Sequence record: ON185580.1 | Source of the DNA: Escherichia phage EC120 | Length of the DNA stretch: 44,544 nucleotides | Reading direction: 5' to 3' (one strand) | Shown here: piece by piece, positions 3,063 to 44,485 of the stretch | Numbering within the stretch: the first letter of the stretch is position 1 | Layout of the letters: the number at the start of each line of letters is the position of its first letter | Notes under the pieces: generated by a model | The model's database searches: none | Told to the model about the DNA's origin: nothing | What the model saw: the letters and a program-made list of their open reading frames with translations, nothing else | Program-made: the position numbers and the translations under genes

Positions 3063-5690
3063 ATGCAAGACCTACACGCTATTCAACTTCAACTTGAAGA
3101 AGAAATGTTTAACGGCGGTATCCGTCGCTTTGAAGCGGACCAACAACGCCAGATTGCATCCGGTAATGAATCAGACACGGCATGGAATCGCCGCTTATTG
3201 TCCGAGTTAATCGCGCCAATGGCTGAAGGTATTCAGGCATACAAGGAAGAGTATGAAGGTAAAAGAGGCCGTGCACCGCGTGCATTAGCTTTCATTAACT
3301 GCGTAGAAAACGAAGTGGCAGCATATATCACGATGAAAATCGTTATGGATATGCTGAACACGGATGTAACTTTGCAGGCTATAGCCATGAATGTAGCTGA
3401 CCGCATTGAGGACCAAGTACGTTTTAGCAAGCTGGAAGGTCACGCCGCCAAATACTTTGAGAAAGTTAAGAAGTCACTTAAGGCAAGTAAGACTAAATCA
3501 TATCGCCATGCGCACAACGTAGCGGTCGTGGCTGAGAAGTCAGTAGCTGACCGTGACGCTGATTTCTCTCGCTGGGAGGCGTGGCCTAAAGATACCTTGC
3601 TACAAATTGGTATGACCTTGCTAGAAATACTGGAAAATAGTGTATTCTTCAATGGTCAGCCTGTCTTTCTTCGCACCTTGCGCACTAATGGTGGCAAGCA
3701 TGGCGTTTACTACTTACAGACTAGCGAACACGTGGGTGAATGGATAACTGCATTTAAAGAGCACGTAGCTCAGCTGAGTCCAGCCTATGCGCCTTGCGTT
3801 ATTCCTCCTCGTCCGTGGGTTTCTCCGTTTAATGGTGGCTTCCATACTGAGAAAGTAGCAAGCCGTATTCGTCTAGTAAAAGGCAATCGTGAGCACGTCC
3901 GCAAGCTGACCAAAAAGCAAATGCCAGCGGTTTACAAGGCTGTTAACGCTTTGCAGGCGACTAAGTGGCAGGTTAATAAAGAGGTTTTGCAGGTAGTAGA
4001 GGACGTTATCCGTCTCGACCTTGGTTATGGTGTGCCTTCCTTTAAACCACTCATCGACCGTGAGAACAAGCCAGCTAATCCAGTGCCGTTAGAGTTCCAG
4101 CACCTGCGAGGCCGTGAATTGAAAGAGATGCTAACACCGGAGCAATGGCAGGCCTTCATCAACTGGAAGGGTGAATGTACTAAGCTGTATACCGCTGAGA
4201 CTAAGCGCGGCAGCAAGTCGGCGGCGACCGTCCGCATGGTAGGACAGGCCCGTAAATACAGCCAGTTTGACGCTATTTATTTTGTATATGCACTGGATAG
4301 CCGTTCACGCGTTTATGCGCAATCTAGCACGCTCTCGCCGCAATCAAACGACTTAGGCAAGGCATTGCTCCGTTTTACCGAAGGGCAGCGTCTTGATAGC
4401 GCTGAGGCGCTTAAGTGGTTTTTGGTGAACGGGGCGAATAACTGGGGTTGGGATAAGAAAACTTTTGACGTGCGCACCTCTAACGTGCTGGATGGCGAAT
4501 TTCAAGACATGTGCCGCGACATTGCAGCCGATCCGCTGACCTTCACTCAATGGGTAAATGCTGATTCCCCTTACGGCTTCCTTGCATGGTGCTTTGAATA
4601 TGCGCGTTATCTGGATGCACTGGATGAAGGCACGCAAGACCAATTCATGACGCACCTACCCGTCCATCAAGACGGTAGTTGCTCTGGTATCCAGCACTAT
4701 AGCGCGATGTTACGCGATGAAGTAGGTGCGAAAGCAGTAAACCTTAAGCCTTCTGACTTCCCTCAAGATATTTATGGCGCGGTTGCGCAGGTTGTTATCC
4801 AGAAGAATTACGCCTACATGAATGCAGACGATGCAGAGACTTTCACATCTGGAAGCGTCACACTTACAGGTGCAGAACTGCGTAGCATGGCTAGTGCGTG
4901 GGATATGATAGGAATCACTCGCGGATTGACCAAAAAGCCCGTAATGACACTACCTTATGGCAGCACACGTCTAACCTGCCGTGAATCAGTGATTGATTAT
5001 ATCGTTGATTTGGAAGAAAAAGAGGCCCAACGAGCTATTGCGGAAGGGCGTACCGCCAATCCTGTACATCCTTTTGATAATGACCGTAAGGACAGCCTGA
5101 CACCTAGTGCAGCTTATAACTATATGACGGCTTTAATCTGGCCTTCTATTTCGGAAGTGGTTAAAGCTCCTATAGTGGCAATGAAAATGATTCGTCAGCT
5201 TGCCCGTTTCGCAGCTAAAAGGAATGAAGGCTTAGAGTATACCTTGCCTACTGGCTTCATCTTGCAACAAAAGATTATGGCTACTGATATGCTCCGCGTA
5301 TCCACTTGCCTGATGGGAGAAATCAAGATGAGTCTACAGATTGAAACGGACGTAGTGGATGAAACGGCTATGATGGGCGCTGCTGCTCCTAACTTTGTGC
5401 ATGGTCATGATGCCAGTCACCTTATCTTAACAGTCTGCGACCTTGTTGATAAAGGGATTACATCTATCGCAGTCATTCATGATTCTTTCGGTACTCACGC
5501 AGGCCGTACAGCCGATCTTCGTGATAGCTTAAGGGCAGAAATGGTGAAGATGTATCAAGGCCGTAATGCCCTGCAAAGCCTGTTAGATGAGCATGAAGAA
5601 CGCTGGTTAGTAGACACCGGAATCCAAGTGCCAGAGCAAGGAGAGTTTGACCTTAACGAAATCTTAGTATCTGACTATTGCTTCGCATAA
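3063..5690 (+). CDS. Single-subunit DNA-dependent RNA polymerase (SP6-type)
   Basis: 875 aa; N-terminus [32 protein letters not shown] and C-terminus ...[10 protein letters not shown]...FA align by recall with SP6 RNAP; catalytic [14 protein letters not shown] and VIHDSFGTH motifs present. Confidence 0.97.
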
Positions 5691-5698
5691 TATTAATA

Positions 5699-5729
5699 GG
5701 CCATTCCTTCGGGAGTGGCCTTTTCTTTT
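5699..5729 (+). terminator. Intrinsic terminator after RNAP gene
   Basis: 9-bp stem GGCCATTCC/GGAGTGGCC with TTCG tetraloop, followed by TTTTCTTTT. Confidence 0.6.
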
Positions 5730-5763
5730 ACCTACTACCGGTAACATTTCATTAACATAAAGT

Positions 5764-5779
5764 GTCTCACATGTGAGAC
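5764..5779. repeat. Palindrome GTCTCACATGTGAGAC (copy 1)
   Basis: Perfect 16-bp palindrome, 2 nt upstream of phage promoter 5782. Confidence 0.8.
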
Positions 5780-5781
5780 TT

Positions 5782-5804
5782 ATTTACCGGACACTATAGG
5801 ATAG
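5782..5804 (+). promoter_or_regulatory. Phage-RNAP promoter (ATTTACCGGACACTATAGGATAG)
   Basis: 18-bp SP6-type core; expected +1 G at 5799. Confidence 0.7.
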
Positions 5805-5947
5805 CCGTCGGAGACGGGGAAAGAAAGGGAAGATAAAGGATATAAAAAGGAAGTGATAGGTATTAAAGGCTATATAGGTTATCTAGGAATACCTATTACC
5901 TTCTTCCTTCCTCTTATTACTACTTAGAGGAAGGGCAGATCTAGGTT

Positions 5948-5963
5948 GTCTCACATGTGAGAC
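5948..5963. repeat. Palindrome GTCTCACATGTGAGAC (copy 2)
   Basis: Perfect 16-bp palindrome, 5 nt upstream of promoter 5969. Confidence 0.8.
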
Positions 5964-5968
5964 TTCGT

Positions 5969-5991
5969 ATTTACCGGACAGTATAGATAAG
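5969..5991 (+). promoter_or_regulatory. Phage-RNAP promoter variant (ATTTACCGGACAGTATAGATAAG)
   Basis: One substitution in the core (CAGTATAG); expected +1 G at 5986. Confidence 0.6.
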
Positions 5992-6016
5992 ACTAACTTA
6001 CTTTGGAGATTTAACC

Positions 6017-6145
6017 ATGCGTAACTTTGAGAAGATGACCCGTAAAGCTAACCGTTTTGACATGGAAGAAGGGCAGAAGAAAGGCAAGAAGCTGAATAAA
6101 CCTGTCCGTGACCGTGCATCTAAACGCGCTGCGTGGGAGTTCTAA
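6017..6145 (+). CDS. Small basic protein, T7 gp1.1-like (42 aa)
   Basis: MRNFEKMTRKANR...KLNKPVRDRASKRAAWEF resembles recalled T7 gp1.1 (MRNFEKMT...KLNK..RDR..KR); below track cutoff. Confidence 0.5.
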   Translation: MRNFEKMTRKANRFDMEEGQKKGKKLNKPVRDRASKRAAWEF

Positions 6146-6148
6146 GTT

Positions 6149-8137
6149 ATGGCTATTATTCAGAATGTACCGTGTCCTGCCTGTCAAAAGAATGGACATG
6201 ATATTACTGGCAACCATCTTATGATATTTGAGGATGGCGCTGGTTACTGTAACCGTGGTCACTTCCATGATAATGGGAAGCCTTATTACCATAAGCCAGA
6301 GGGTGGTATCGAGATAACCGAATTGCCTATTACTGGCAATATCAAATATACACCTTCTCAATTCAAAGAAATGGAGAAGGAAGGGAAGATAAGCGACCCT
6401 AAGCTACGCGCCATCGCTCTTGGTGGTATGCGTATGAAAGACCGTTGGGAGGTCATGAATGAGCAAGAAAGGGCAGACCAAGAAGCAGAGTGGAAACTTG
6501 ATGTTGAATGGTTCCTCACGCTTAAGCGTAAGAACCTTGTTTCCAGACACATTCGCGGCGACATTTGCGCATTGTATGATGTACGTGTCGGACACGATGA
6601 AGAGGGTAGAGTCTCGCGGCATTACTATCCACGCTTCGAGAAAGGTGAGCTAGTAGGAGCTAAGTGTCGCACATTACCTAAAGATTTTAAGTTTGGTCAT
6701 TTAGGTAAACTCTTTGGTATGCAAGATCTTTTCGGTATGAATACTTTGTCTCACGTGTTAGACAAGGGGAGACGAAAGGATTGCTTGCTTATTGTAGGCG
6801 GTGAACTTGATGCACTAGCAGCGCAGCAGATGCTCCTTGATTCTGCCAAAGGTACTAAGTGGGAAGGACAACCATATCATGTGTGGTCTGTCAACAAGGG
6901 CGAGTCTTGCCTTGAAGAGATAGTGCAGAACCGTGAGCATATCGCCCAATTCAAGAAGATTATATGGGGTTTTGATGGAGATGAGGTAGGGCAGAAGCAG
7001 AATCAGCAAGCGGCTCGCCTGTTTCCTGGCAAATCCTATATCCTTGAATACCCCTCTGGTTGCAAAGATGCTAACAAGGCATTGATGGCTGGCAAGGCCA
7101 AAGAGTTTGTTGATGCATGGTTTAATGCCAAGTCATCTGATGAAGTCTTTGGTAGCCAGATTAAATCTATCGCATCTCAAAGGGATAAGCTCAAGGCTGC
7201 ACGTCCAGAGCAAGGACTATCATGGCCTTGGCCTAAGCTGAACAAGGTAACGCTAGGTATTCGTAAGAACCAACTTATCATTGTAGGCGCAGGCTCTGGT
7301 GTAGGTAAGACTGAGTTCCTTCGTGAAGTAGTTAAGCACCTCATTGAAGAACACGGTGAATCTGTAGGCATCATTTCTACAGAAGACCCGATGGTCAAGG
7401 TGTCCCGTGCTTTTATCGGCAAGTGGATTGATAAGCGTATTGAGTTACCGCCAACCAACGACCCGAAAGAAGATGGATACCGTGAGGTGTTCGACTACAC
7501 CGAGGAAGAAGCCAATGCTGCCATTGATTATGTAGCGGATACAGGGAAGCTGTTTGTGGCTGACCTAGAGGGTGACTATTCGATGGAGAAGGTAGAGCAG
7601 ACTTGCCTTGAGTTTGAGGCTATGGGTATTTCTAATATCATCATTGATAACTTAACGGGGATTAAATTAGATGAGCGTGCTTTTGGTGGGAAGGTTGGTG
7701 CACTTGATGAATGCGTCAAGCGGATTGGTACTATCAAAGACCGACACCCGGTTACTATATTCCTTGTATCGCACCTTACACGTCCTCCGGCAAACCGTAC
7801 CCAACACGAAGAAGGTGGCGAGGTTATCCTTTCTGACTTCCGAGGCTCAGGAGCTATCGGATTCTGGGCATCTTACGCCTTGGGGATTGAGCGTAACACA
7901 AGAGCTGAAACGCTTGATGAAAGAACTACCACGTACATCTCATGTGTCAAAGACCGCGACCAAGGTATCTGGACTGGAACCAAGGTCATGCTTAAGGGTG
8001 ACATTCAAACCGGACGTTTAATGGAACCACAAGCCCGTACTAAGTCATTTGATACAGGTGAAGCAAGGCAACAAGAAGTACCAGATTTACCGGACACTAT
8101 AGAAGAGACTAACTTCGATGAAGAAAGTGAGTTCTGA
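6149..8137 (+). CDS. DNA primase/helicase (T7 gp4-like)
   Basis: N-terminal Cys4 zinc-binding motif (CPACQ...C..GHFHD), Walker A GAGSGVGKTEF, acidic C-terminus ending EESEF. Confidence 0.93.
   Translation: MAIIQNVPCPACQKNGHDITGNHLMIFEDGAGYCNRGHFHDNGKPYYHKPEGGIEITELPITGNIKYTPSQFKEMEKEGKISDPKLRAIALGGMRMKDRWEVMNEQERADQEAEWKLDVEWFLTLKRKNLVSRHIRGDICALYDVRVGHDEEGRVSRHYYPRFEKGELVGAKCRTLPKDFKFGHLGKLFGMQDLFGMNTLSHVLDKGRRKDCLLIVGGELDALAAQQMLLDSAKGTKWEGQPYHVWSVNKGESCLEEIVQNREHIAQFKKIIWGFDGDEVGQKQNQQAARLFPGKSYILEYPSGCKDANKALMAGKAKEFVDAWFNAKSSDEVFGSQIKSIASQRDKLKAARPEQGLSWPWPKLNKVTLGIRKNQLIIVGAGSGVGKTEFLREVVKHLIEEHGESVGIISTEDPMVKVSRAFIGKWIDKRIELPPTNDPKEDGYREVFDYTEEEANAAIDYVADTGKLFVADLEGDYSMEKVEQTCLEFEAMGISNIIIDNLTGIKLDERAFGGKVGALDECVKRIGTIKDRHPVTIFLVSHLTRPPANRTQHEEGGEVILSDFRGSGAIGFWASYALGIERNTRAETLDERTTTYISCVKDRDQGIWTGTKVMLKGDIQTGRLMEPQARTKSFDTGEARQQEVPDLPDTIEETNFDEESEF
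8085..8107 (+). promoter_or_regulatory. Phage-RNAP promoter embedded in 3' end of primase-helicase gene
   Basis: ATTTACCGGACACTATAGAAGAG; expected +1 G at 8102. Confidence 0.6.
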
Positions 8138-8157
8138 TTAGTGTATTTATCAGGGCT

Positions 8158-8175
8158 TGTCTCACATGTGAGACA
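8158..8175. repeat. Palindrome TGTCTCACATGTGAGACA (copy 3)
   Basis: Perfect 18-bp palindrome (extendable with wobble pairs to 8153-8180) right after the primase-helicase stop, followed by CTCTTATT. Confidence 0.8.
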
Positions 8176-8213
8176 GGCTCTTATTAAGTACATTAAATAA
8201 CTGGAGATTGATT

Positions 8214-8897
8214 ATGTATAAATTAGTATTGAATGTAGGTGATTATGTTCGTAACATCAATGAAGCCTCACGTCGTTATCGTTGCCGTGGTGTAGTGGCT
8301 CGTGTAAGTGAGAACATGTATCATGTAGAATATGAGGATGGTATTAAGGCTTCTTACCACAAGAAAACAGCACATAAATACCTTGAAAAGATTGTAGAGA
8401 TAAACAATCAATGTAAGTGCATACATGATGAGGTTTGCGATAAATGTGCTCGCCAGATGCTTAAGAATTTCCTAGCTCCTCTTTATTATGGTTCTGGCCC
8501 TCAAACACTAGCAGAGTACATGGCAGAAAAGAAAACCACACTCAAGAAAGAGCGCCGCAATGTAATCACTGGTAAGACTCAAAGTGAAATGATTAAACTA
8601 TGTGGCACTGCATTAGGTGTTACGCAGTTTAATACTCGTTCATTGGGTAAATCCACAGGGCAAGCTATGGTGAAGATTGGTGAAGCCATGATGCAACCAA
8701 ATGTACCTGTGCGAATCGTGGATATTGACCATGCAATCACAGAGCATGGTACACCACGCCGTGTAGCTAACAATCATTTTGCCGACACTATAGAAGACAT
8801 TATTCGTAAGCAAGGGTTGAAGGGTCTTCACATCTTAAATGGTGAAGAATTACTGTACCTACCTATCGTTACTGAAGAAACCTACGTGAATATCTAA
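8214..8897 (+). CDS. Hypothetical protein (227 aa)
   Basis: GGAG RBS then ATG 8214 (track start 8208 is TTG); no recognised motifs. Confidence 0.65.
   Translation: MYKLVLNVGDYVRNINEASRRYRCRGVVARVSENMYHVEYEDGIKASYHKKTAHKYLEKIVEINNQCKCIHDEVCDKCARQMLKNFLAPLYYGSGPQTLAEYMAEKKTTLKKERRNVITGKTQSEMIKLCGTALGVTQFNTRSLGKSTGQAMVKIGEAMMQPNVPVRIVDIDHAITEHGTPRRVANNHFADTIEDIIRKQGLKGLHILNGEELLYLPIVTEETYVNI
8776..8798 (+). promoter_or_regulatory. Weak or divergent phage promoter-like sequence (ATTTTGCCGACACTATAGAAGAC)
   Basis: Conserved GACACTATAGAAG with 4 mismatches in the upstream half; lies inside a CDS. Confidence 0.4.
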
Positions 8898-9126: not shown

Positions 9127-9292
9127 ACATAGTCTTAAAATGTTCGATGGTCATGAAGACCTGCAAGCCAAGATTACTAACCAAGCCTTCCTGTTCGCAC
9201 AGTTAACTATGGCTGAAGCAAAGAAGAATAGCCTGACGCGTGAACAGGTTATCAAGGAAAGTGAAGTGAAACGTAAGATTCGCAGTCGATAA
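9116..9292 (+). CDS. Small hypothetical protein (58 aa)
   Basis: ATG overlapping the end of the previous ORF in another frame; basic C-terminus. Confidence 0.3.
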   Translation: MQNKHSLKMFDGHEDLQAKITNQAFLFAQLTMAEAKKNSLTREQVIKESEVKRKIRSR

Positions 9293-9302
9293 GTCAAGGG
9301 TT

Positions 9303-9318
9303 GTCTCACACGTGAGAC
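9303..9318. repeat. Palindrome variant GTCTCACACGTGAGAC (copy 4)
   Basis: 7-bp arms identical to the other copies with a 2-nt central mismatch; extendable to 9299-9322; followed by CTTTCATC. Confidence 0.75.
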
Positions 9319-9349
9319 AGCCTTTCATCATATTGATTGGAGGTGCATT

Positions 9350-12476: not shown

Positions 12477-12499
12477 GATTTACTGGACACTATAGAAGG
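12477..12499 (+). promoter_or_regulatory. Phage-RNAP promoter (consensus copy)
   Basis: ATTTACTGGACACTATAGAAGGA; expected +1 G at 12494. Confidence 0.75.
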
Positions 12500-12564
12500 A
12501 AAGCCTAGACAATCTAGGTTTATAAGGTAGTATAGGTAATTAAGTAAATATAGGAGATATAAAC

Positions 12565-12942
12565 ATGTCTATGGTAACTACTCTGGTATTTGTAGCTCAA
12601 TACTTTCGTGGTCTGGCTAATAAGTTCAAGTCCAAGGCTATCAAAGCTATTGAGTCTCGCATCGAGGCAGTACAGGCAGAGCAGGTTAAAGTTGAAGAAC
12701 ATCGTAGTTCTCAAATGATTGACTGCCATAACCGCTACTATGCATCTCGTGATGACCTTAATGCACGCCAAGTCAAAGAGGTTGAAGAGATGCTGGCACG
12801 TCACCAGCAAGAGCGCGACAGTCTGAAAGCTGAATTTGAAGAGAACAAGGCATCCATCGCCCTTGTACATCAAGCCGCATCTGACAGCCTGAAGAAAGAG
12901 ATTGTTATGCTGGAAATTGAGTTAGACAACCTGACCAAATAA
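12565..12942 (+). CDS. Hypothetical coiled-coil protein (125 aa)
   Basis: AGGAGA RBS; heptad-rich charged sequence. Confidence 0.65.
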   Translation: MSMVTTLVFVAQYFRGLANKFKSKAIKAIESRIEAVQAEQVKVEEHRSSQMIDCHNRYYASRDDLNARQVKEVEEMLARHQQERDSLKAEFEENKASIALVHQAASDSLKKEIVMLEIELDNLTK

Positions 12943-14243: not shown

Positions 14244-14618
14244 ATGTTCAAGATTGAAACTATCGTAAACCGTGTTGTTAAAGGTGCTGCTCTGGTATCC
14301 GTTGAGTCTTTCATTATCGTCGATGAAGCTGATCAACTGGTAGCTGGTACTAAGGCTTATGATACTCGTGAAGAAGCTCAGGCTAAGATTGACAGCATGG
14401 GTAACTTCGCTGCGGGTCTGGAGTTCGCTCGTGCTTGCTTCCCTGAGCAGGCTGACAAAGCTCAGATTGGTAAGGCTAATATCGTAGCTGAATATCTGGA
14501 TTGGATTGCTGCTGGTAAGCCGGTGAAAGAAGTTAAAGCTGCGGAAGAAGTTGAAGCTCCGGCAGTAGAAGAAGTAGCTGCACCGGAAGTTCCGGTAAGC
14601 GAAGAAGAAGAGTTTTAA
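14244..14618 (+). CDS. Small acidic protein (124 aa) with C-terminal EEEEF tail
   Basis: Own promoter, strong RBS (AAAGGAGAA) and a terminator hairpin directly downstream; codon usage looks highly expressed. Confidence 0.7.
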   Translation: MFKIETIVNRVVKGAALVSVESFIIVDEADQLVAGTKAYDTREEAQAKIDSMGNFAAGLEFARACFPEQADKAQIGKANIVAEYLDWIAAGKPVKEVKAAEEVEAPAVEEVAAPEVPVSEEEEF

Positions 14619-27835: not shown

Positions 27836-30783
27836 TGGCAATTGAGCGACAAGCAGTACAAGGTCTGCCACAAGTGCAGGCCACTTCTCCTAATGTCATG
27901 ACCTTTGCACCTCAGCGAGTTGGAGGTGTGGAGGTTGGCGTAGCTTCTACCTCCGGTAGTCGATTTATCGAAGACCTTATTCGAGCAGCCAGTAGTGTAG
28001 CTGATGTAACCACTGGTATCCTTAATCAAAAGATTGAGGAAGATAAGGTTGTTCAAATGGAACGGGCATATAACGGATTAATGCCTTCTGAGGATGCAAC
28101 TCGTGGTGGCGCTCGTGCTAACATGCTTGTCAAAGCTCAACTGCTAGCTAATGATGAAGCAGCACGAATGAAAGACATGGCTACTCGTTTCCAAGGAACG
28201 GATGACGAGTGGACACAACTTATGGTTGACTCTCGTAATGAGATGCAGAATAAGCTGTTCCAGCAATACCCTGAGTTGCAAGGTGACAAAGATACTATGC
28301 GTATGGTCACTAATGTCTTCCAAGAACAGCAGCCTCAGATTTGGGCGACACGAACCCAGCATAAACTTGACCGTGAACAAGCAGACCGTGAGGATACCTT
28401 TGACGGGCGAGTGGCTTCTACTTGGGATTCTAATATTGACCCTGAAGCATCTGGTTATGCTTTACAGGAACGAATCCGCGAAGGTCTTACTCAAGGATTA
28501 CTACCTGAACAGATGCACAAGAAGTTAGTCCAGCGAGCAATTTCACTTGCACAAGGCGGTGATGTTAGCATGGCTGAAGCCCTGAAGTATGTGAAGGACG
28601 ATAAGGGTGTTTCTGTTTATGCTAAGAATCCACAGCTTATCACAGCCATCACTAGTGGTAATGCAGTTTGGGCTAGGAATAATGTAGCTGATGTAACTCG
28701 TATGTCTTTCGAAGTTAAAGAATCCTACCTTGCAGGTGATTTAACTGATGAAGAATTGTTGGAACGAGCACAGCACATTAATAATCTGACAGGTAACTCT
28801 GTCTTCTCTAATCCAGAGCTAGAGGCACTGATGCGCCAACGGGCTAAGCAGAATGCAGAGCTAGGTGCAATGCAGGATATGCGACGTGAGCTTTACTCCG
28901 ACCGCCTGACTGGCTTCCAAGGTAAGACTGATAAAGAGAAGAAGGCTTACATTGATGTTATCAAACAGGATAGCCAACTTTATGCAGACCAGCAAATCAA
29001 ACAACGTGGCTTGGACCCTTACAGTCAAGAGGCTGAAGCTATTCGTGGTGCAGTGGAAGTGCAGCGCCTGCAATTCATGAACTCCAAAGGCTTAGTGGAT
29101 GATACCTTTGAGTCTCGTATCAAAGCCATGGAATCTATGCTATCGCCTGAGCACTTTGCCAAGGGCGAACCACAGGAGTTGATGACTATTCGCCAGTTGT
29201 GGGAACAGTTGCCAGAAGAGAGCCGAGGTGTCTTTGGTGACACGGTGAATGGCTACATGGATAACTACAACACTGCACTACAAATGGGAGAGACACCTTT
29301 GCAGGCTGCAAGGTTTGCGCGTGAAGCACAGCAGAAATTCTCTCGTACTGAGAAGGAAACCAAGAAGTTCAACTCAGCTATTGGAGATGCACTGGATGAG
29401 GTATCTGGTGCTGGCTGGTTTGATGGTAAAACCGAAGTGTCAGACTTAGGTAAAGCTATTGCGGAAGAAGAGTTACGAGCTAAGGCCAATATGTTGTGGT
29501 CTAGTGGTATGCGTAACATGGATTCTATCAAGAAGGCTTTAATTACTTGGGGCAATAAACGCTACACTCAAACAGAGGATGCAAAGACTTCCGGTGGCTA
29601 TTTCATTAAAGGTGATTACACTTCTGCCTCTGATATGCTTATGTCAGTTGGGAAAGGCGTAAATCCTACCGATGTACCTCTGGCGCTTGGTAGGTATGTA
29701 GAAACACAGATGCCAGAATTGAAGAAGGAGCTTCAAGAGTGGGAAACTAAAGATGATATATACATTGATTACAATGAACAGAAAGGTACTTTCGTGATTC
29801 GTGCTGGTGCAGCAGGTCGCCCTCTTTCTGGAGTAATCCCTGTAACCTCTTTAGATACCACTTCACTACTAGATTCTGCCTATCAGAAGAAAGTAGAGGA
29901 ACGAGATAAAGGCGAGTATGTTCACCCTTATCGTACAGATATTGGTGCACAAGAGCCTATGCCAGCTAAACCAACTGCCAAAGATATTGGTAAATTTGGA
30001 CTAGCTAACTTCCTCATGTCTTCTGCTTTTGCTTCTGGTGAGAATCTGCCTTCTAACTTCGAGATTAACTATCGAGGTAATATGCAACAATTCTATGACA
30101 AGCTAGCTATGGATGAGAATAAAGATAAAGTTGGCTTTAATAAGGCAACTGGAACCTTTACTCCATATAAAGATGCTCACGGTGAGTCTATCGGTTACGG
30201 TCATTTCTTAACGGAAGAAGAGAAGCGAAACGGGTATATTAAGATTGGTGATGAACTAGTTCCCTATCGAGGGTCTATGTCTCAGCTTACAGAGAGCAAG
30301 GCTCGCGCTCTTATGGAGCAAGATGCCAAGAAGCATGTGCCTCCTACTCGTGACTGGAAGATTCCGTTTGACCAGATGCATCCTGCACAGCAACGTGGCT
30401 TGATGGATTTAACCTACAATTTAGGTAAAGGTGGAATCCAGAACTCACCGCGTGCTCTTGCTGCATTCAAAGCTGGTAAGCTTACGGAAGGCTTTATCGA
30501 AATGCTGGGCACTGCATCAAGTGAAGGTAAGCGTATCCCTGGTCTACTGAAGCGACGCGCTGAGGCATACAATATGGCATCTGCTGGTGGTGTGCCTAAG
30601 ATTACCGAAGTGGAGACTCGTGAAGATGGCTCCATGTGGGTTAGGTTTGGTGGACCTATGCCAGCAGGTTCTGTCTCGGCATGGACTCATAAACGTATTG
30701 GCGCGGATGGTTGGTATCAGGTTTATGAGGCTGCACCTACCAAGTTAGCTAAAGGTTCTAAGGTAGGTAAATTTAAGTTGTAG
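27835..30783 (+). CDS. Internal virion protein with C-terminal lysozyme-like domain
   Basis: 981 aa; segment TFTPYKDAHGESIGYGHFLTEEEK resembles the T4/P22 lysozyme core (YKDTEGYYTIGIGH). Confidence 0.75.
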   Translation: MAIERQAVQGLPQVQATSPNVMTFAPQRVGGVEVGVASTSGSRFIEDLIRAASSVADVTTGILNQKIEEDKVVQMERAYNGLMPSEDATRGGARANMLVKAQLLANDEAARMKDMATRFQGTDDEWTQLMVDSRNEMQNKLFQQYPELQGDKDTMRMVTNVFQEQQPQIWATRTQHKLDREQADREDTFDGRVASTWDSNIDPEASGYALQERIREGLTQGLLPEQMHKKLVQRAISLAQGGDVSMAEALKYVKDDKGVSVYAKNPQLITAITSGNAVWARNNVADVTRMSFEVKESYLAGDLTDEELLERAQHINNLTGNSVFSNPELEALMRQRAKQNAELGAMQDMRRELYSDRLTGFQGKTDKEKKAYIDVIKQDSQLYADQQIKQRGLDPYSQEAEAIRGAVEVQRLQFMNSKGLVDDTFESRIKAMESMLSPEHFAKGEPQELMTIRQLWEQLPEESRGVFGDTVNGYMDNYNTALQMGETPLQAARFAREAQQKFSRTEKETKKFNSAIGDALDEVSGAGWFDGKTEVSDLGKAIAEEELRAKANMLWSSGMRNMDSIKKALITWGNKRYTQTEDAKTSGGYFIKGDYTSASDMLMSVGKGVNPTDVPLALGRYVETQMPELKKELQEWETKDDIYIDYNEQKGTFVIRAGAAGRPLSGVIPVTSLDTTSLLDSAYQKKVEERDKGEYVHPYRTDIGAQEPMPAKPTAKDIGKFGLANFLMSSAFASGENLPSNFEINYRGNMQQFYDKLAMDENKDKVGFNKATGTFTPYKDAHGESIGYGHFLTEEEKRNGYIKIGDELVPYRGSMSQLTESKARALMEQDAKKHVPPTRDWKIPFDQMHPAQQRGLMDLTYNLGKGGIQNSPRALAAFKAGKLTEGFIEMLGTASSEGKRIPGLLKRRAEAYNMASAGGVPKITEVETREDGSMWVRFGGPMPAGSVSAWTHKRIGADGWYQVYEAAPTKLAKGSKVGKFKL

Positions 30784-30799
30784 TATCTAACTCAAGGCT

Positions 30800-30817
30800 T
30801 GTCTCACATGTGAGACA
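30800..30817. repeat. Palindrome TGTCTCACATGTGAGACA (copy 6)
   Basis: Perfect 18-bp palindrome between two internal virion protein genes, followed by GGTCTTTATG. Confidence 0.8.
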
Positions 30818-30847
30818 GGTCTTTATGATAGGCACTATGGAGGAATT

Positions 30848-36488: not shown

Positions 36489-38373
36489 AGAATCACAGGC
36501 AGAGGCATTAAAGCGGTGGGAAAACCTTAAAGAACTACAAGACACTTTTAAATATACAGCGGAAGGTTTGCTTCTCTTTGCAGATACAGTTATTCATAAC
36601 TTAATTGCAGGCAACCCTCATCTGATTCGTATGCAGGCGGATATCTTGAAGTTCCTATTTTACGGACACAAGTACCGCCTCATCGAAGCGCCTCGTGGTA
36701 TCGCTAAGACAACACTATCAGCAATCTATACGGTATTCCGTATTATTCATGAACCGCATAAGCGTATCATGGTTGTGTCCCAAAACGCCAAGCGAGCAGA
36801 GGAAATCGCAGGTTGGGTAGTTAAAATCTTCCGTGGCTTAGACTTTCTTGAGTTTATGCTGCCGGATATCTACGCTGGGGACCGTGCATCCGTTAAGGCG
36901 TTTGAGATTCATTACACCCTACGTGGTAGTGATAAGTCTCCTTCTGTATCCTGTTACTCAATCGAAGCAGGTATGCAGGGTGCTCGTGCTGATATTATTC
37001 TAGCGGATGACGTAGAGTCGATGCAGAATGCTCGTACGGCAGCGGGCCGTGCCTTGCTTGAGGAACTGACTAAGGAGTTTGAATCTATCAACCAGTTTGG
37101 GGATATCATTTACCTTGGTACACCTCAGAACGTAAACTCTATCTACAACAACCTACCTGCTCGTGGTTACTCTGTTCGTATCTGGACTGCGCGTTACCCT
37201 TCAGTAGAGCAAGAGCAATGTTATGGCGACTTCCTTGCACCTATGATTGTTCAAGATATGAAGGACAACCCAGCACTTCGCTCAGGGTACGGGTTGGATG
37301 GTAATAGTGGTGCACCTTGTGCCCCTGAAATGTATGATGATGAAGTCCTGATTGAGAAGGAAATCTCTCAAGGTGCTGCTAAGTTCCAGCTTCAGTTCAT
37401 GCTTAACACTCGCATGATGGATGCTGACAGATACCCATTACGCCTGAACAATCTAATCTTCACCTCGTTTGGTACAGAGGAAGTCCCTGTGATGCCTACG
37501 TGGAGTAATGATTCCATAAACATCATTGGTGATGCACCTAAGTATGGTAACAAGCCTACGGATTTCATGTACAGACCTGTAGCTCGCCCATACGAATGGG
37601 GTGCTGTCTCCCGCAAGATTATGTATATTGACCCTGCGGGTGGTGGTAAGAACGGAGATGAGACGGGTGTAGCCATCGTATTCCTGCACGGCACATTCAT
37701 TTATGTGTATCAGTGCTTTGGTGTACCTGGCGGATACCGAGAGTCGTCCCTGAATCGCATTGTGCAGGCCGCAAAGCAGGCGGGTGTTAAAGAGGTATTC
37801 ATTGAGAAGAACTTTGGTCATGGCGCGTTTGAGGCGGTAATTAAGCCGTACTTTGAACGAGAGTGGCCTGTAACTCTGGAAGAGGATTACGCCACCGGAC
37901 AGAAAGAGTTGCGTATCATTGAGACGCTGGAGCCGCTCATGGCAGCCCATAGGCTTATCTTCAATGCAGAGATGGTGAAGTCAGACTTTGAGTCGGTACA
38001 GCACTATCCGCTTGAACTACGCATGTCCTACAGTCTTTTCAATCAAATGTCGAACATAACGATTGAGAAGAACAGCCTCCGGCACGATGACCGCCTAGAC
38101 GCCCTGTATGGCGCTATACGGCAATTAACTTCTCAGATAGACTATGATGAGGTTACACGGATTAATCGCCTCAGAGCGCAGGAGATGCGCGATTACATCC
38201 ATGCTATGAACACACCTCATCTACGCAGGGCAATGCTATATGGAGATTACGGTACTGAGCGAAGAGTGACCAACACTTCCGTAGCGATGCAGCAGCGAGT
38301 TTACGGGCAGAACTACCGAAATAAATCGGCAAGCAGAAATACACTTTCTGCAAGGATTTCAAGGACTTATTAA
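36475..38373 (+). CDS. Terminase large subunit
   Basis: ATPase region ...YRLIEAPRGIAKTT... and nuclease region parallel recalled T7 gp19; TAAGGAG RBS then ATG 36475 (track start 36436). Confidence 0.9.
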   Translation: MAKARESQAEALKRWENLKELQDTFKYTAEGLLLFADTVIHNLIAGNPHLIRMQADILKFLFYGHKYRLIEAPRGIAKTTLSAIYTVFRIIHEPHKRIMVVSQNAKRAEEIAGWVVKIFRGLDFLEFMLPDIYAGDRASVKAFEIHYTLRGSDKSPSVSCYSIEAGMQGARADIILADDVESMQNARTAAGRALLEELTKEFESINQFGDIIYLGTPQNVNSIYNNLPARGYSVRIWTARYPSVEQEQCYGDFLAPMIVQDMKDNPALRSGYGLDGNSGAPCAPEMYDDEVLIEKEISQGAAKFQLQFMLNTRMMDADRYPLRLNNLIFTSFGTEEVPVMPTWSNDSINIIGDAPKYGNKPTDFMYRPVARPYEWGAVSRKIMYIDPAGGGKNGDETGVAIVFLHGTFIYVYQCFGVPGGYRESSLNRIVQAAKQAGVKEVFIEKNFGHGAFEAVIKPYFEREWPVTLEEDYATGQKELRIIETLEPLMAAHRLIFNAEMVKSDFESVQHYPLELRMSYSLFNQMSNITIEKNSLRHDDRLDALYGAIRQLTSQIDYDEVTRINRLRAQEMRDYIHAMNTPHLRRAMLYGDYGTERRVTNTSVAMQQRVYGQNYRNKSASRNTLSARISRTY

Positions 38374-38394
38374 TTACTGGACACTATAGAAGGA
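38372..38394 (+). promoter_or_regulatory. Phage-RNAP promoter overlapping terminase stop codon
   Basis: AATTACTGGACACTATAGAAGGA; expected +1 G at 38389. Confidence 0.75.
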
Positions 38395-38525
38395 AGGCCC
38401 AGAGAATAAGAGAAATAACAAGGATAATATAGTTAACCTAGGTTATATAGGTTACTATAGTATGGGTGTACTCCTGTACACCCTATTCCTACTTACTATT
38501 TACTTATATGTATAAGGAGTATTAG

Positions 38526-40135: not shown

Positions 40136-42034
40136 ATGGCTAAATTAACCAAACCTAATACTGAAGGAATCTTGCATAAAGGACAATCTTTGTATGAGTA
40201 CCTTGATGCGAGAGTTTTAACATCAAAGCCGTTTGGTGCTGCAGGTGACGCCACTACTGATGATACGGAGGTTATAGCTGCTTCATTAAACTCTCAGAAA
40301 GCTGTCACAGTCTCAGATGGTGTATTCTCTAGCTCTGGTATTAATAGTAATTACTGTAACTTAGACGGTAGGGGTAGTGGCGTGCTAAGTCACCGTTCCA
40401 GTACAGGTAACTACTTAGTATTTAACAATCTACGTGCAGGTCGCTTAAGTAATATTACGGTAGAAAGTAATAAGGCGACTGATACAACTCAGGGACAGCA
40501 GGTATCTCTTGCTGGTGGAAGTGATGTTACTGTAAGTGACGTTAACTTCTCAAACGTTAAAGGTACTGGTTTCAGTTTAATCGCATACCCTAATGATGCG
40601 CCACCTGATGGACTTATGATTAAAGGTATTCGAGGTAGCTATTCCGGCTATGCTACTAATAAGGCAGCCGGATGCGTACTTGCTGACTCCTCAGTTAACT
40701 CCCTCATAGATAACGTCATTGCTAAGAACTACCCTCAGTTCGGAGCAGTAGAGTTGAAAGGTACAGCAAGTTACAACATAGTCAGTAATGTTATAGGGGC
40801 AGATTGCCAGCATGTAACTTACAACGGCACTGAAGGGCCAATAGCCCCTTCTAATAACCTTATCAAGGGGGTGATGGCTAATAATCCTAAGTATGCAGCG
40901 GTTGTTGCAGGCAAAGGTAGTACGAACTTAATATCAGATGTGCTCGTAGATTACTCAACCTCTGATGCTAGGCAGGCTCATGGTGTTACAGTAGAGGGTT
41001 CTGATAACGTCATAAATAATGTGCTTATGTCAGGATGTGATGGTACTAACTCTTTAGGACAAGGGCAGACTGCTACAATTGCACGCTTTATAGGTACAGC
41101 TAATAACAACTATGCGTCTGTATTTCCTAGCTACAGTGCTACAGGTGTTATTACTTTCGAATCCGGCTCTACCCGTAACTTCGTAGAGGTAAAGCACCCT
41201 GGCAGGAGAAACGACCTTCTCAGTTCTGCTAGTACTATTGACGGTGCAGCTACTATTGACGGCACTAATAATAGTAACGTAGTGCACGCACCTGCCTTAG
41301 GGCAGTACATAGGTAGTATGTCAGGTAGGTTCGAATGGCGGATTAAGTCCATGTCACTCCCTTCAGGCGTTCTTACTTCTGCTGATAAGTACAGAATGCT
41401 TGGGGATGGTGCTGTATCATTAGCTTTAGGTGGGGGTACTTCTTCTCAAGTTCGCCTATTTACTTCTGATGGTACTTCTCGGACAGTGTCCCTCACCAAC
41501 GGTAACGTGCGTCTTTCTACCAGTAGCACAGGATATTTGCAGTTAGGTGCTGATGCAATGACCCCAGACAGTACTGGTACATACGCATTAGGTTCCGCCA
41601 GCCGAGCATGGTCTGGCGGTTTTACTCAAGCAGCGTTCACTGTTACCTCAGATGCTCGGTGTAAAACAGAACCTCTTACTATTTCAGATGCCTTACTGGA
41701 TGCTTGGTCTGAAGTTGACTTTGTGCAGTTTCAGTATTTGGATCGTGTTGAGGAGAAGGGTGCAGACTCAGCTAGATGGCACTTTGGCGTCATCGCTCAG
41801 CGAGCTAAGGAGGCTTTCGAACGTCACGGTATAGATGCACATCGCTATGGCTTCTTGTGCTTCGACAGTTGGGAGGATGTATACGAGGAAGATGCCGATG
41901 GCTCTCGTAAACTGATTACACCAGCAGGTTCCCGCTACGGTATTCGTTACGAGGAAGTACTGATATTAGAGGCTGCGTTGATGCGGCGGACTATTAAGCG
42001 TATGCAGGAAGCACTAGCTTCCTTGCCTAAGTAA
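40136..42034 (+). CDS. Tailspike 1: beta-helix polysaccharide depolymerase with C-terminal self-cleaving chaperone domain
   Basis: 632 aa from ATG 40136 (AGGAGA RBS). Beta-helix-like Gly/Ser/Asn/Thr-rich repeats; C-terminal ~128 aa begins SDARCK (Ser codon 41648-41650), matching the peptidase S74 intramolecular chaperone signature. Confidence 0.8.
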   Translation: MAKLTKPNTEGILHKGQSLYEYLDARVLTSKPFGAAGDATTDDTEVIAASLNSQKAVTVSDGVFSSSGINSNYCNLDGRGSGVLSHRSSTGNYLVFNNLRAGRLSNITVESNKATDTTQGQQVSLAGGSDVTVSDVNFSNVKGTGFSLIAYPNDAPPDGLMIKGIRGSYSGYATNKAAGCVLADSSVNSLIDNVIAKNYPQFGAVELKGTASYNIVSNVIGADCQHVTYNGTEGPIAPSNNLIKGVMANNPKYAAVVAGKGSTNLISDVLVDYSTSDARQAHGVTVEGSDNVINNVLMSGCDGTNSLGQGQTATIARFIGTANNNYASVFPSYSATGVITFESGSTRNFVEVKHPGRRNDLLSSASTIDGAATIDGTNNSNVVHAPALGQYIGSMSGRFEWRIKSMSLPSGVLTSADKYRMLGDGAVSLALGGGTSSQVRLFTSDGTSRTVSLTNGNVRLSTSSTGYLQLGADAMTPDSTGTYALGSASRAWSGGFTQAAFTVTSDARCKTEPLTISDALLDAWSEVDFVQFQYLDRVEEKGADSARWHFGVIAQRAKEAFERHGIDAHRYGFLCFDSWEDVYEEDADGSRKLITPAGSRYGIRYEEVLILEAALMRRTIKRMQEALASLPK

Positions 42035-44002: not shown

Positions 44003-44485
44003 TCTTAGTGTACACAAGGGCAGACCTAGGTTTGCTCTTAGTGTATTTACAATGGAGGTCTTATGTATATACCTATGGAAGCACTAGTAGGTTGCCTGTG
44101 TTTGTTGGTAGGCTTCATTATAGGCTTAATAGCAAACCCTTAGTGTAATCCAAGGAGGTAACATGCAAGAAGAGAATTGGGATGTGTAATATTGGGTTTG
44201 GAGGAGGCTGAACCTTAGTCCTGTACAAGGATTAACCAAAGTCAAAATTTTGATATAGGCGTGTGTGAGGTGTCTCGCCCTCGCCCTCGCCGGATTTCCC
44301 CCATATGGGGCCGCGCTGCGGTTGGCTTGGGAATTGGGCTGGGCTGGTGGGCTGGGCTGGTCCGTCGTGGCCTAGGGCTTGCCGAGGTCTGCTCTTAGTG
44401 GCTGCACAAGGAGAACGCCTAGGAAGCGCTAGGGCACGCCTTAGTATTGGACAAGGTGATTGCCTTAGTTCAACCGCTTAGGGCT
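44003..44485. repeat. Right-end array of CTTAGT(G) repeats (at least 7 copies) flanking a GC-rich tandem-repeat core
   Basis: CTTAGTG-like motif at about 44004, 44037, 44140, 44214, 44394, 44440, 44464; same motif as the left-end array. Confidence 0.5.

Follow-up and report, generated by a model that had tools for sequence, protein, structure and literature searches.

Introduction

In phage T7 the RNA polymerase gene is followed by a pair of promoters and a small gene, in the order gene 1, phi1.1A (5848), phi1.1B (5923) and gene 1.1 (6007) of the T7 record, and the hairpin between phi1.1A and phi1.1B is the RNase III site R1.1. Tandem promoters raise the initiation of T7-type replication in vitro (PMC12796468), T7 transcripts are cut by the host RNase III at specific sites (PMC6938266), and phiOR and phi6.5 have been named as T7 secondary origins (PMC8373140). 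Here we consider positions 5,730 to 6,016 of the 44,544-nucleotide sequence ON185580.1 from Escherichia phage EC120 (the whole sequence is the window, numbered from its first letter on the strand given). The initial annotation of this stretch had proposed that it is a primary replication origin downstream of the phage RNA polymerase gene.

Phages of the K1-5, K1E and SP6 types are employed therapeutically and in phage engineering, and laboratories use their polymerases and promoters as tools. To our knowledge, the replication origin of these phages has apparently never been mapped experimentally.

Results

A control region 3' of the RNA polymerase gene and 5' of gene 1.1

Sequence and gene order mark the region as the form that the T7 gene 1/gene 1.1 control region takes in the SP6/K1-5 group, and thus as an orthologue of an already known phage control region. 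Two predicted phage promoters, P1 and P2, very probably mark the start of middle transcription here, with a structured leader following P1. The features on which this assignment turns are:

5698..5729, + strand: predicted intrinsic terminator of early (host-polymerase) transcription; stem 5698-5721, T-run tail TTTCTTTT
5782..5799, + strand: predicted promoter P1, ATTTACCGGACACTATAG; exact consensus match; +1 = G5799
5969..5986, + strand: predicted promoter P2, ATTTACCGGACAGTATAG; one mismatch, G at -5; +1 = G5986

Promoters of the SP6-group type, 18 nt long and ending in TATAG with G at +1, occur at 12 sites in the whole genome when up to 3 mismatches to the genome's own consensus are allowed, against 0.04 expected. 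They sit on the coding strand throughout, and the same positions hold promoters in SP6 and K1E. The phage promoters that had been noted at 5782 and 5969 are therefore present. P1, which matches the consensus, is kept in all relatives with lineage-specific specificity bases. In most lineages P2 departs from the consensus between -5 and -1, with C>G at -5 in Vectrevirus and the sequence labelled L029, A>T at -1 in SP6 and the Klebsiella phages, and A>G at -1 in L030. A weak promoter-like site, ATTTAGCTGACACTATAA, is found 5' of the RNA polymerase gene at 1803-1820 (3 mismatches, A at +1) and has an SP6 counterpart at 2104.

The terminator claimed for the end of the polymerase gene is likewise borne out by a stem-loop and T run at 5698-5729. 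Its stem has 10 pairs, 6 of them GC, around a TTCG loop and is followed by TTTCTTTT; the stem, with compensatory changes, and the T run are kept in all aligned relatives. Early transcription would stop at this terminator, and the phage RNA polymerase would begin middle transcription at P1 (+1 5799) and P2 (+1 5986), from which the gp1.1 homologue, the primase/helicase gene and more distal genes would be transcribed. The assignments of early termination and middle transcription rest on sequence and homology.

The genes that border the region are:

3063..5690, + strand: phage single-subunit RNA polymerase gene, the upstream boundary (875-aa open reading frame; Pfam RNA_pol, E 4e-89, and RPOL_N; K1-5 annotation)
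6005..6008, + strand: Shine-Dalgarno sequence GGAG of gene 8, picked out by eye, 8 nt 5' of the ATG at 6017
6017..6145, + strand: gene 8, a 42-aa T7 gp1.1 homologue (BLASTP, Pfam)
6149..8137, + strand: DNA primase/helicase gene, the first replication gene that P1/P2 would serve (Pfam DnaB_C and Toprim_2; K1-5 annotation)

The 601 nt around the locus share 96-99% identity with K1-5, K1E and many further coliphages of Vectrevirus, which belongs to the subfamily Molineuxvirinae of the Autographiviridae. The window is itself a K1-5/K1E-like genome of this genus, with the length of a complete one. The K1-5 counterpart lies between the RNA polymerase gene, the 42-codon 'gene 8' and the primase/helicase gene. 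Sequence records of the K1-5/K1E/SP6 group that we examined carry no feature annotation in the intergenic stretch. The gene 8 product is 56% identical to T7 gp1.1 (BLASTP, E 1e-12) and matches the Pfam family PF08200, Phage_1_1 'Bacteriophage 1.1 protein', with 58.6 bits (cut-off 21), and the RefSeq note on its SP6 orthologue reads 'other names: gp1.1'. Since gene 8 is a gp1.1 homologue and the gene order is the same, the locus is placed as the positional homologue of T7 phi1.1A-R1.1-phi1.1B.

The intergenic region was aligned across K1-5, SP6, UAB_Phi78, GRNsp03, SE29 and four Klebsiella phages. It was also inspected in 25 viral contigs found via the C-terminus of the RNA polymerase, whose polymerase identity to ON185580.1 ranges down to 72%. 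All complete loci have the same order of terminator, hairpin motif, P1, 5' hairpin, AGG decamers and pyrimidine-rich segment, followed often by a second hairpin motif and then by P2 and gene 1.1. This layout spans Vectrevirus, Zindervirus, the Klebsiella phages and distant contigs, even where the promoter specificity bases differ. A small open reading frame in the P1-P2 spacer can be ruled out, there being no start codon and the length differences between relatives not being multiples of three. In VEc3 (L041; 513-929) and UAB_Phi78 (L008; 793-1203), the gap between the P2 leader and gene 1.1's start codon holds an inserted gene for an HNH homing endonuclease, at a point corresponding to about 6011-6016 of ON185580.1; because some relatives carry this insertion just 3' of P2, the sequence there is not position-critical.

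Structure of the P1 leader

The P1 transcript has a 187-nt non-coding leader. In addition to the short conserved hairpin motif treated in the next section, this leader would carry the following elements:

5805..5817, + strand: 5' leader hairpin CCGTC-GGA-GACGG, with covariation
5826..5887, + strand: seven AGG triplets in a degenerate, purine-rich decamer repeat, phased at 9-11 nt
5847..5905, + strand: long imperfect hairpin, candidate RNase III-type site, with purine arm 5847-5864 and pyrimidine arm 5888-5905
5906..5934, + strand: second small hairpin, the inverted repeat CCTTCCTCT...AGAGGAAGG, seen in the minimum-free-energy and centroid folds and in Vectrevirus and SP6-type spacers

The 5' hairpin is the only helix recovered in the RNAalifold consensus of 31 spacer sequences. 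Its third pair (columns 12/20) is GC 21 times, AU 5 times and UA 4 times. Such a hairpin would be expected to stabilise the RNA.

The initial annotation had pointed to an inverted repeat, GATAGGTATT...AATACCTAT, and we find it inside a longer one of 18 nt (5847-5864/5888-5905, 83% complementary), whose purine arm is supplied by the AGG array. The spacer folds into a long hairpin more stably than shuffled sequences in 11/11 lineage representatives, with z of -3.0 to -7.7 when the shuffling is global and -2.2 to -8.0 when 15-nt blocks are shuffled so as to keep local composition. Counting against the hairpin, the RNAalifold alignment of 31 sequences gives it no covariation; its register varies by lineage, and it is because of these differences in pairing register that the consensus fold misses it. 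One G.U to A-U change separates the stems of ON185580.1 and K1-5. ATT(G)ACCTTCTTCC is common to the 3' arm of this hairpin and that of the T7 hairpin lying between phi1.1A and phi1.1B, with a 13/14 match (p about 0.004-0.009). The presence of a long hairpin in every lineage, the T7 hairpin in the same place with a shared 3' arm, and the processing of T7 transcripts by RNase III together favour an RNase III-type site over other roles for the inverted repeat, and we give this candidate processing hairpin about an even prospect of being right. It would be processed in the manner of T7 R1.1, separating and stabilising the transcripts on either side. An Rfam scan of 5500-6300 returned sub-threshold noise only.

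Successive AGG triplets at 5826-5887 are spaced by 11, 11, 10, 9, 9 and 9 nt, forming the densest and longest phased AGG chain of the genome; no shuffled genome exceeds 4 units. Across 11 lineages, 42/50 of the spacings fall at 9-11 nt. The array is too degenerate to be reported by Tandem Repeats Finder, which found no repeat in the spacer. We considered and rejected two roles for it. An origin of the iteron type, as in lambda or plasmids, would call for several direct repeats of about 17-22 bp, bound by an initiator of their own, beside an AT-rich segment; the degenerate decamers here share only AGG, similar arrays occur in mRNA leaders elsewhere, and we know of no initiator gene in this phage group. 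A decoy of the CsrA type is ruled out because most of the repeats have no GGA core.

Similar arrays phased at 9-11 nt occur in other leaders, at 37792-37851 of SP6 after P37773 (7 units) and at 14325-14364 and 40870-40901 of SE29. The SE29 arrays sit in leaders equivalent to those of the ON185580.1 promoters 12478 and 38372, where the ON185580.1 sequences (12515-12560 and 38435-38455) are degenerate. A hairpin and then a pyrimidine-rich stretch come after each of these arrays.

A family of conserved hairpin motifs

The palindrome that had been noted before each promoter is found in both places:

5764..5779, + strand: hairpin motif copy 1, GTCTCACATGTGAGAC, short-stem, 2 nt 5' of P1
5948..5963, + strand: hairpin motif copy 2, GTCTCACATGTGAGAC, short-stem, 5 nt 5' of P2

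The perfect 16-mer GTCTCACATGTGAGAC has 8 genome copies within 3 mismatches, against 0.17 expected. The family takes the form GTCYMAC-NN-GTKRGAC and occupies eight syntenic places in ON185580.1, SP6, SE29 and K1E. In ON185580.1 the copies start at 326, 5764, 5948, 6748, 8159, 9303, 14141 and 30801; they lie at the left end ahead of a host-type promoter, ahead of P1 and of P2, one within and one after the primase gene, beyond the next gene cluster, ahead of promoter 14172, and beyond a gene ending at 30783. At the copy-1 position, SP6 and the Klebsiella phages have GTCCAAC-NN-GTTGGAC, with both arms changed jointly. Two pairs of the motif covary, one of the pairs 4/13 and 5/12 being T-A, C-G or T.G and the other C-G or A-T.

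The copies at 8159, 9303 and 30801, which are not adjacent to promoters, are extended into 13-bp stems (8152-8181, 9296-9325 and 30794-30823). In 12 sequences of these stems, 99.1% of cells are paired and 6/13 pairs show compensatory double changes, a result matched by 0/500 shuffles; in slid controls 31-53% of cells are paired. The stems also have frequent G.U pairs on the plus strand, which are A.C mismatches on the other. The pairing, the compensatory changes and the strand bias of the G.U pairs therefore indicate strand-specific RNA hairpins (or plus-strand single-stranded DNA hairpins). The family could represent weak terminators, 3'-end stabilisers or processing sites. At copies 1 and 2, the promoter's own TTATTTA trails the short stem like a terminator tail. 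There is no sign that the copies at 5764 and 5948 are origin elements, and RNA hairpins are the better reading both of the palindromes and of the inverted repeat of the spacer.

Two further ideas about the palindromes failed. The mosaic phage SE29 was used to look for a phage gene varying together with the palindrome type, and the premise fell when SE29 proved to carry both types. An apparent duplication of the spacer module in K1E dissolved on inspection, the second match consisting of promoter and palindrome copies only. Text searches of the literature for the palindrome or for an SP6-group origin gave nothing specific, with Dobbins 2004, Scholl 2004 and the early papers on the T7 origin outside their reach.

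Several other occurrences may be recorded. A degenerate copy of the motif lies inside the primase coding sequence (ON185580.1 6748-6763, SP6 7071, SE29 7753, K1E 8005), and across these four genomes the primase residue at this point is His or Asn in step with the motif type. In the distant contigs L023, L030 and L031, a copy lies inside the RNA polymerase gene at position 1038. The left-end copy of ON185580.1 is followed at 342-400 by a host-type TTGACA promoter-like sequence amid repeated 'cttagtg' motifs. SE29 is a mosaic of SP6-like and K1-5-like segments and has a duplication of ~1 kb, with identical hairpin contexts at 9163 and 10163 and two matches to the primase C-terminus.

Base composition and duplex stability

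The spacer at 5805-5945 had been described as AT- and purine-rich, and this holds for parts of it. Purines make up 79% of 5805-5870 (top 0.07% of windows of the genome, essentially its maximum), and AT-richness is clear in a 61-nt core (72% AT, top 0.5%). The description fails for 5888-5927, which is 75% pyrimidine (bottom 0.1% of windows for purine), and for the spacer as a whole: the AT content of 5800-5945 is 60.3% against a genome mean of 55%, a value equalled or exceeded by ~17% of windows of the same size. The 61 nt after P2 are an unremarkable 64% AT, compared with 78.7% for the 61 nt after T7 phi1.1B (top 0.08% of windows). The purine content of the spacer falls to 0.43-0.44 in the most distant lineages and is thus not conserved there.

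Duplex stability was scanned with nearest-neighbour DNA energies, taking for each promoter the least stable 61-mer that starts within 100 nt 3' of it. In the T7 control the top five leaders are those of phiOL (z 4.54), phi1.1B and phi1.1A (4.23), phi6.5 (4.16) and phiOR (3.51), and the remaining T7 promoters have z of at most 3.16. The scan recovers T7's replication-linked promoters. This link is literature-backed for phi1.1A/B, phiOR and phi6.5; as to phiOL, Dunn and Studier reportedly spoke in 1983 of a 'replication promoter'. The corresponding segment of the P1 leader is:

5839..5899, unstranded: least stable 61-bp duplex 3' of P1; dG -66.4 kcal/mol, z 2.95, top 0.17% of windows, 72% AT

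In ON185580.1 the leader of P8085 ranks highest for instability (8178-8238, z 3.48), followed by those of P38372 (38403-38463, 3.46), P12478 (12512-12572, 3.45) and P1 (2.95), which places P1 at rank 4/12. In SP6 the order is P12542 (z 3.95), P37773 (3.41) and P1 (3.35). An unstable 61-mer within the P1-P2 spacer is kept in 10/10 lineages tested (z 2.3-3.9). P1 thus has a conserved but moderate instability of the T7 kind, and P2 has none. The stretches 8085-8246, 12478-12572 and 38372-38463 are promoter leaders with the least stable DNA of the genome and, by the criterion validated on T7, are origin candidates at least equal to the P1/P2 locus. The module at 38372 sits after the terminase gene, as phiOR does in T7.

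In a scan of hybrid against duplex energies with provisional nearest-neighbour parameters, 5810-5870 is the second most hybrid-favouring 61-mer of the genome. The T7 primary origin falls in the worst 1% on the same scale, and because of this the scan was not used as origin evidence. The most hybrid-favouring 61-mer lies near the right end, at 44303-44363; SP6 has the same at both ends, and this is probably terminal-repeat sequence.

Discussion

Is the locus a replication origin?

Use of the P1/P2 locus as a replication origin in vivo is plausible, although we place it slightly short of an even prospect. Its synteny with T7 speaks for this role, as do the promoters in tandem, the conserved unstable segment 3' of P1 and the proximity to the polymerase and replication genes. 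By analogy with T7 origins, transcripts from P1 could prime rightward DNA synthesis in the melted segment 5839-5899, and the primase/helicase would, on the same analogy, then load on the displaced strand. About four promoter-leader modules would then have the capacity to serve as origins; the locus would be one of them and would probably fire first, because P1 is the first consensus phage promoter 3' of the polymerase gene and lies beside the replication genes.

A number of observations weigh against this role. The leader of P2 ranks last of 12 (z 1.32), so that the second promoter has the most stable downstream DNA of all, and the leaders of 8085, 38372 and 12478 are less stable than that of P1 (z 3.45-3.48 vs 2.95). 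A block of ~79% AT after both promoters, such as T7 possesses, is absent from ON185580.1. The GC skew is uniformly positive with no inflection at the locus, showing only a local minimum near 6 kb and having its global minimum at 26.3 kb (detrended cumulative); we regard it as uninformative, since the T7 control has its minimum at 9.5 kb and misses T7's own origin. The literature searched yielded no initiation-mapping or marker-frequency data for this phage group. A passage of PMC4837284 attributes to Dobbins et al. 2004 the suggestion of an origin at SP6 gene 14, which encodes the DNA polymerase, and one placed as in that passage would fit the module at 12478/12542 and not P1/P2. The sequence does not single out the P1/P2 locus as the origin.

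These points bear directly on the alternative that the region serves transcription and RNA processing only, with replication proceeding mainly from P8085/8178-8238, P12478/12512-12572 or P38372/38403-38463. We consider this possible, if somewhat doubtful. Those three modules surpass P1 and P2 alike in the instability of their leaders, the SP6 post-polymerase-gene promoter 12542 ranks first in that phage (z 3.95), the conserved features of the spacer are RNA-like (covariation in the 5' hairpin, a long hairpin in every lineage), and the SP6 gene 14 origin for which the passage in PMC4837284 cites Dobbins et al. points the same way. Against this, rank by instability does not decide the primary origin even in T7, where phiOL stands above phi1.1B; the module of gene 1, tandem promoters and gene 1.1 has outlived the deep divergence of T7 and SP6 despite rearrangements of other middle genes; and instability after P1 is kept in 10 lineages. 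A different role for the same RNA features would be that of a functional non-coding RNA or R-loop switch, in which the purine-rich, AGG-phased 5' half of the P1 leader would give an RNA:DNA hybrid of unusual stability or bind a host factor and the pyrimidine-rich 3' half would fold back in competition; as in ColE1 RNA II, folding would decide whether the primer hybrid persists. This we think improbable. It would account for the second rank of 5810-5870 among hybrid-favouring 61-mers (on the provisional parameters), for the genome's densest and longest phased AGG array, for the pyrimidine arm and long hairpin in all lineages, and for the similar arrays that SP6 and SE29 have after their counterparts of promoters 38372 and 12478. 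It is difficult to reconcile with the hybrid measure's result for T7, whose primary origin falls in the worst 1%, with the drop in purine richness to 0.43-0.44 in the most distant lineages, with the lack of Rfam family matches in 5500-6300, and, for a CsrA-type factor, with the scarcity of the required GGA core among the AGG motifs.

The 16-bp palindromes before P1 and P2 could instead be operators of a dimeric phage or host DNA-binding protein that regulates the promoters or marks an origin, and a perfect dyad 2-15 nt 5' of three phage promoters, and 5' of the left-end host-type promoter as well, would suit such sites, as would a conserved core in which the central 2 nt are free to vary and the arms change jointly between lineages. 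We nevertheless give operators little credence. SE29 carries both arm types, so that nothing points to one type-specific factor; most of the SP6 copies lack symmetry, with T.G on the + strand (C.A on the other); the covariation of the 13-bp stems and their G.U pairs are the signature of a strand-specific RNA hairpin; and the distance from palindrome to promoter is not fixed. A bolder proposal, which we rate as unlikely, is that the AGG array and pyrimidine arm, which recur behind the equivalents of phi1.1A/B and phiOR and also 3' of the DNA polymerase gene, define a class of origin module specific to the Molineuxvirinae, whose purine-rich transcript would form a lasting hybrid or recruit a factor under the control of RNA folding, and that the eight-member GUCYMAC-NN-GUKRGAC family is an undescribed processing or termination signal.

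If P1/P2 is the origin, promoter-primed initiation beside the polymerase gene, as in T7, would extend across the deepest split of the family, and the fragment could serve for phage-dependent plasmid replication. Duplex stability 3' of phage promoters is a cheap predictor, and gives four candidate origins in ON185580.1. The hairpin family and the phased AGG arrays, as conserved non-coding elements, are the less expected results.

Comparison with known systems

The K1-5 orthologue is 96% identical over 601 nt and has the same promoters, palindromes and gene 8, and SP6 has the same layout at about 70% identity; the K1-5/K1E/SP6 orthologues differ by point changes and one-unit changes in the length of the AGG array only. 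The T7 combination of a phage promoter and a low-stability leader at phiOR, phi6.5 and phiOL has its equivalents in ON185580.1 at 38372, 12478 and 8085, modules that lie outside the coordinates of the locus and compete with it for the origin role. With the R-loop origin of the ColE1 type the locus shares a promoter-driven, purine-rich transcript with a competing fold-back; the two are not homologous, and the likeness is speculative.

The locus also resembles the T7 primary origin. Both loci lie ~13-15% from the left end, directly 3' of the RNA polymerase gene, and both have two rightward tandem promoters with a hairpin between them and then a gene of the gp1.1 family, together with an easily melted segment 3' of the first promoter. 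The hairpin, like T7 R1.1, stands between the tandem promoters and has the shared ATT(G)ACCTTCTTCC 3' arm, but its stem is longer, its loop is larger and its register varies between lineages. The parallel with phi1.1A/B drawn in the initial annotation is thus strengthened in its synteny by the homology of gene 8 to gp1.1, and gives way at the AT-rich element, which does not follow both promoters: the unstable block of T7 (78.7% AT, z 4.23) lies after the pair, whereas that of ON185580.1 (72% AT, z 2.95) lies between them. The spacer is 187 nt long compared with 75 nt in T7, and the strong terminator before P1, the phased AGG array and the hairpin motif before each promoter have no T7 counterpart. 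Finally, in ON185580.1 the primase/helicase gene directly follows gene 1.1, unlike in T7.

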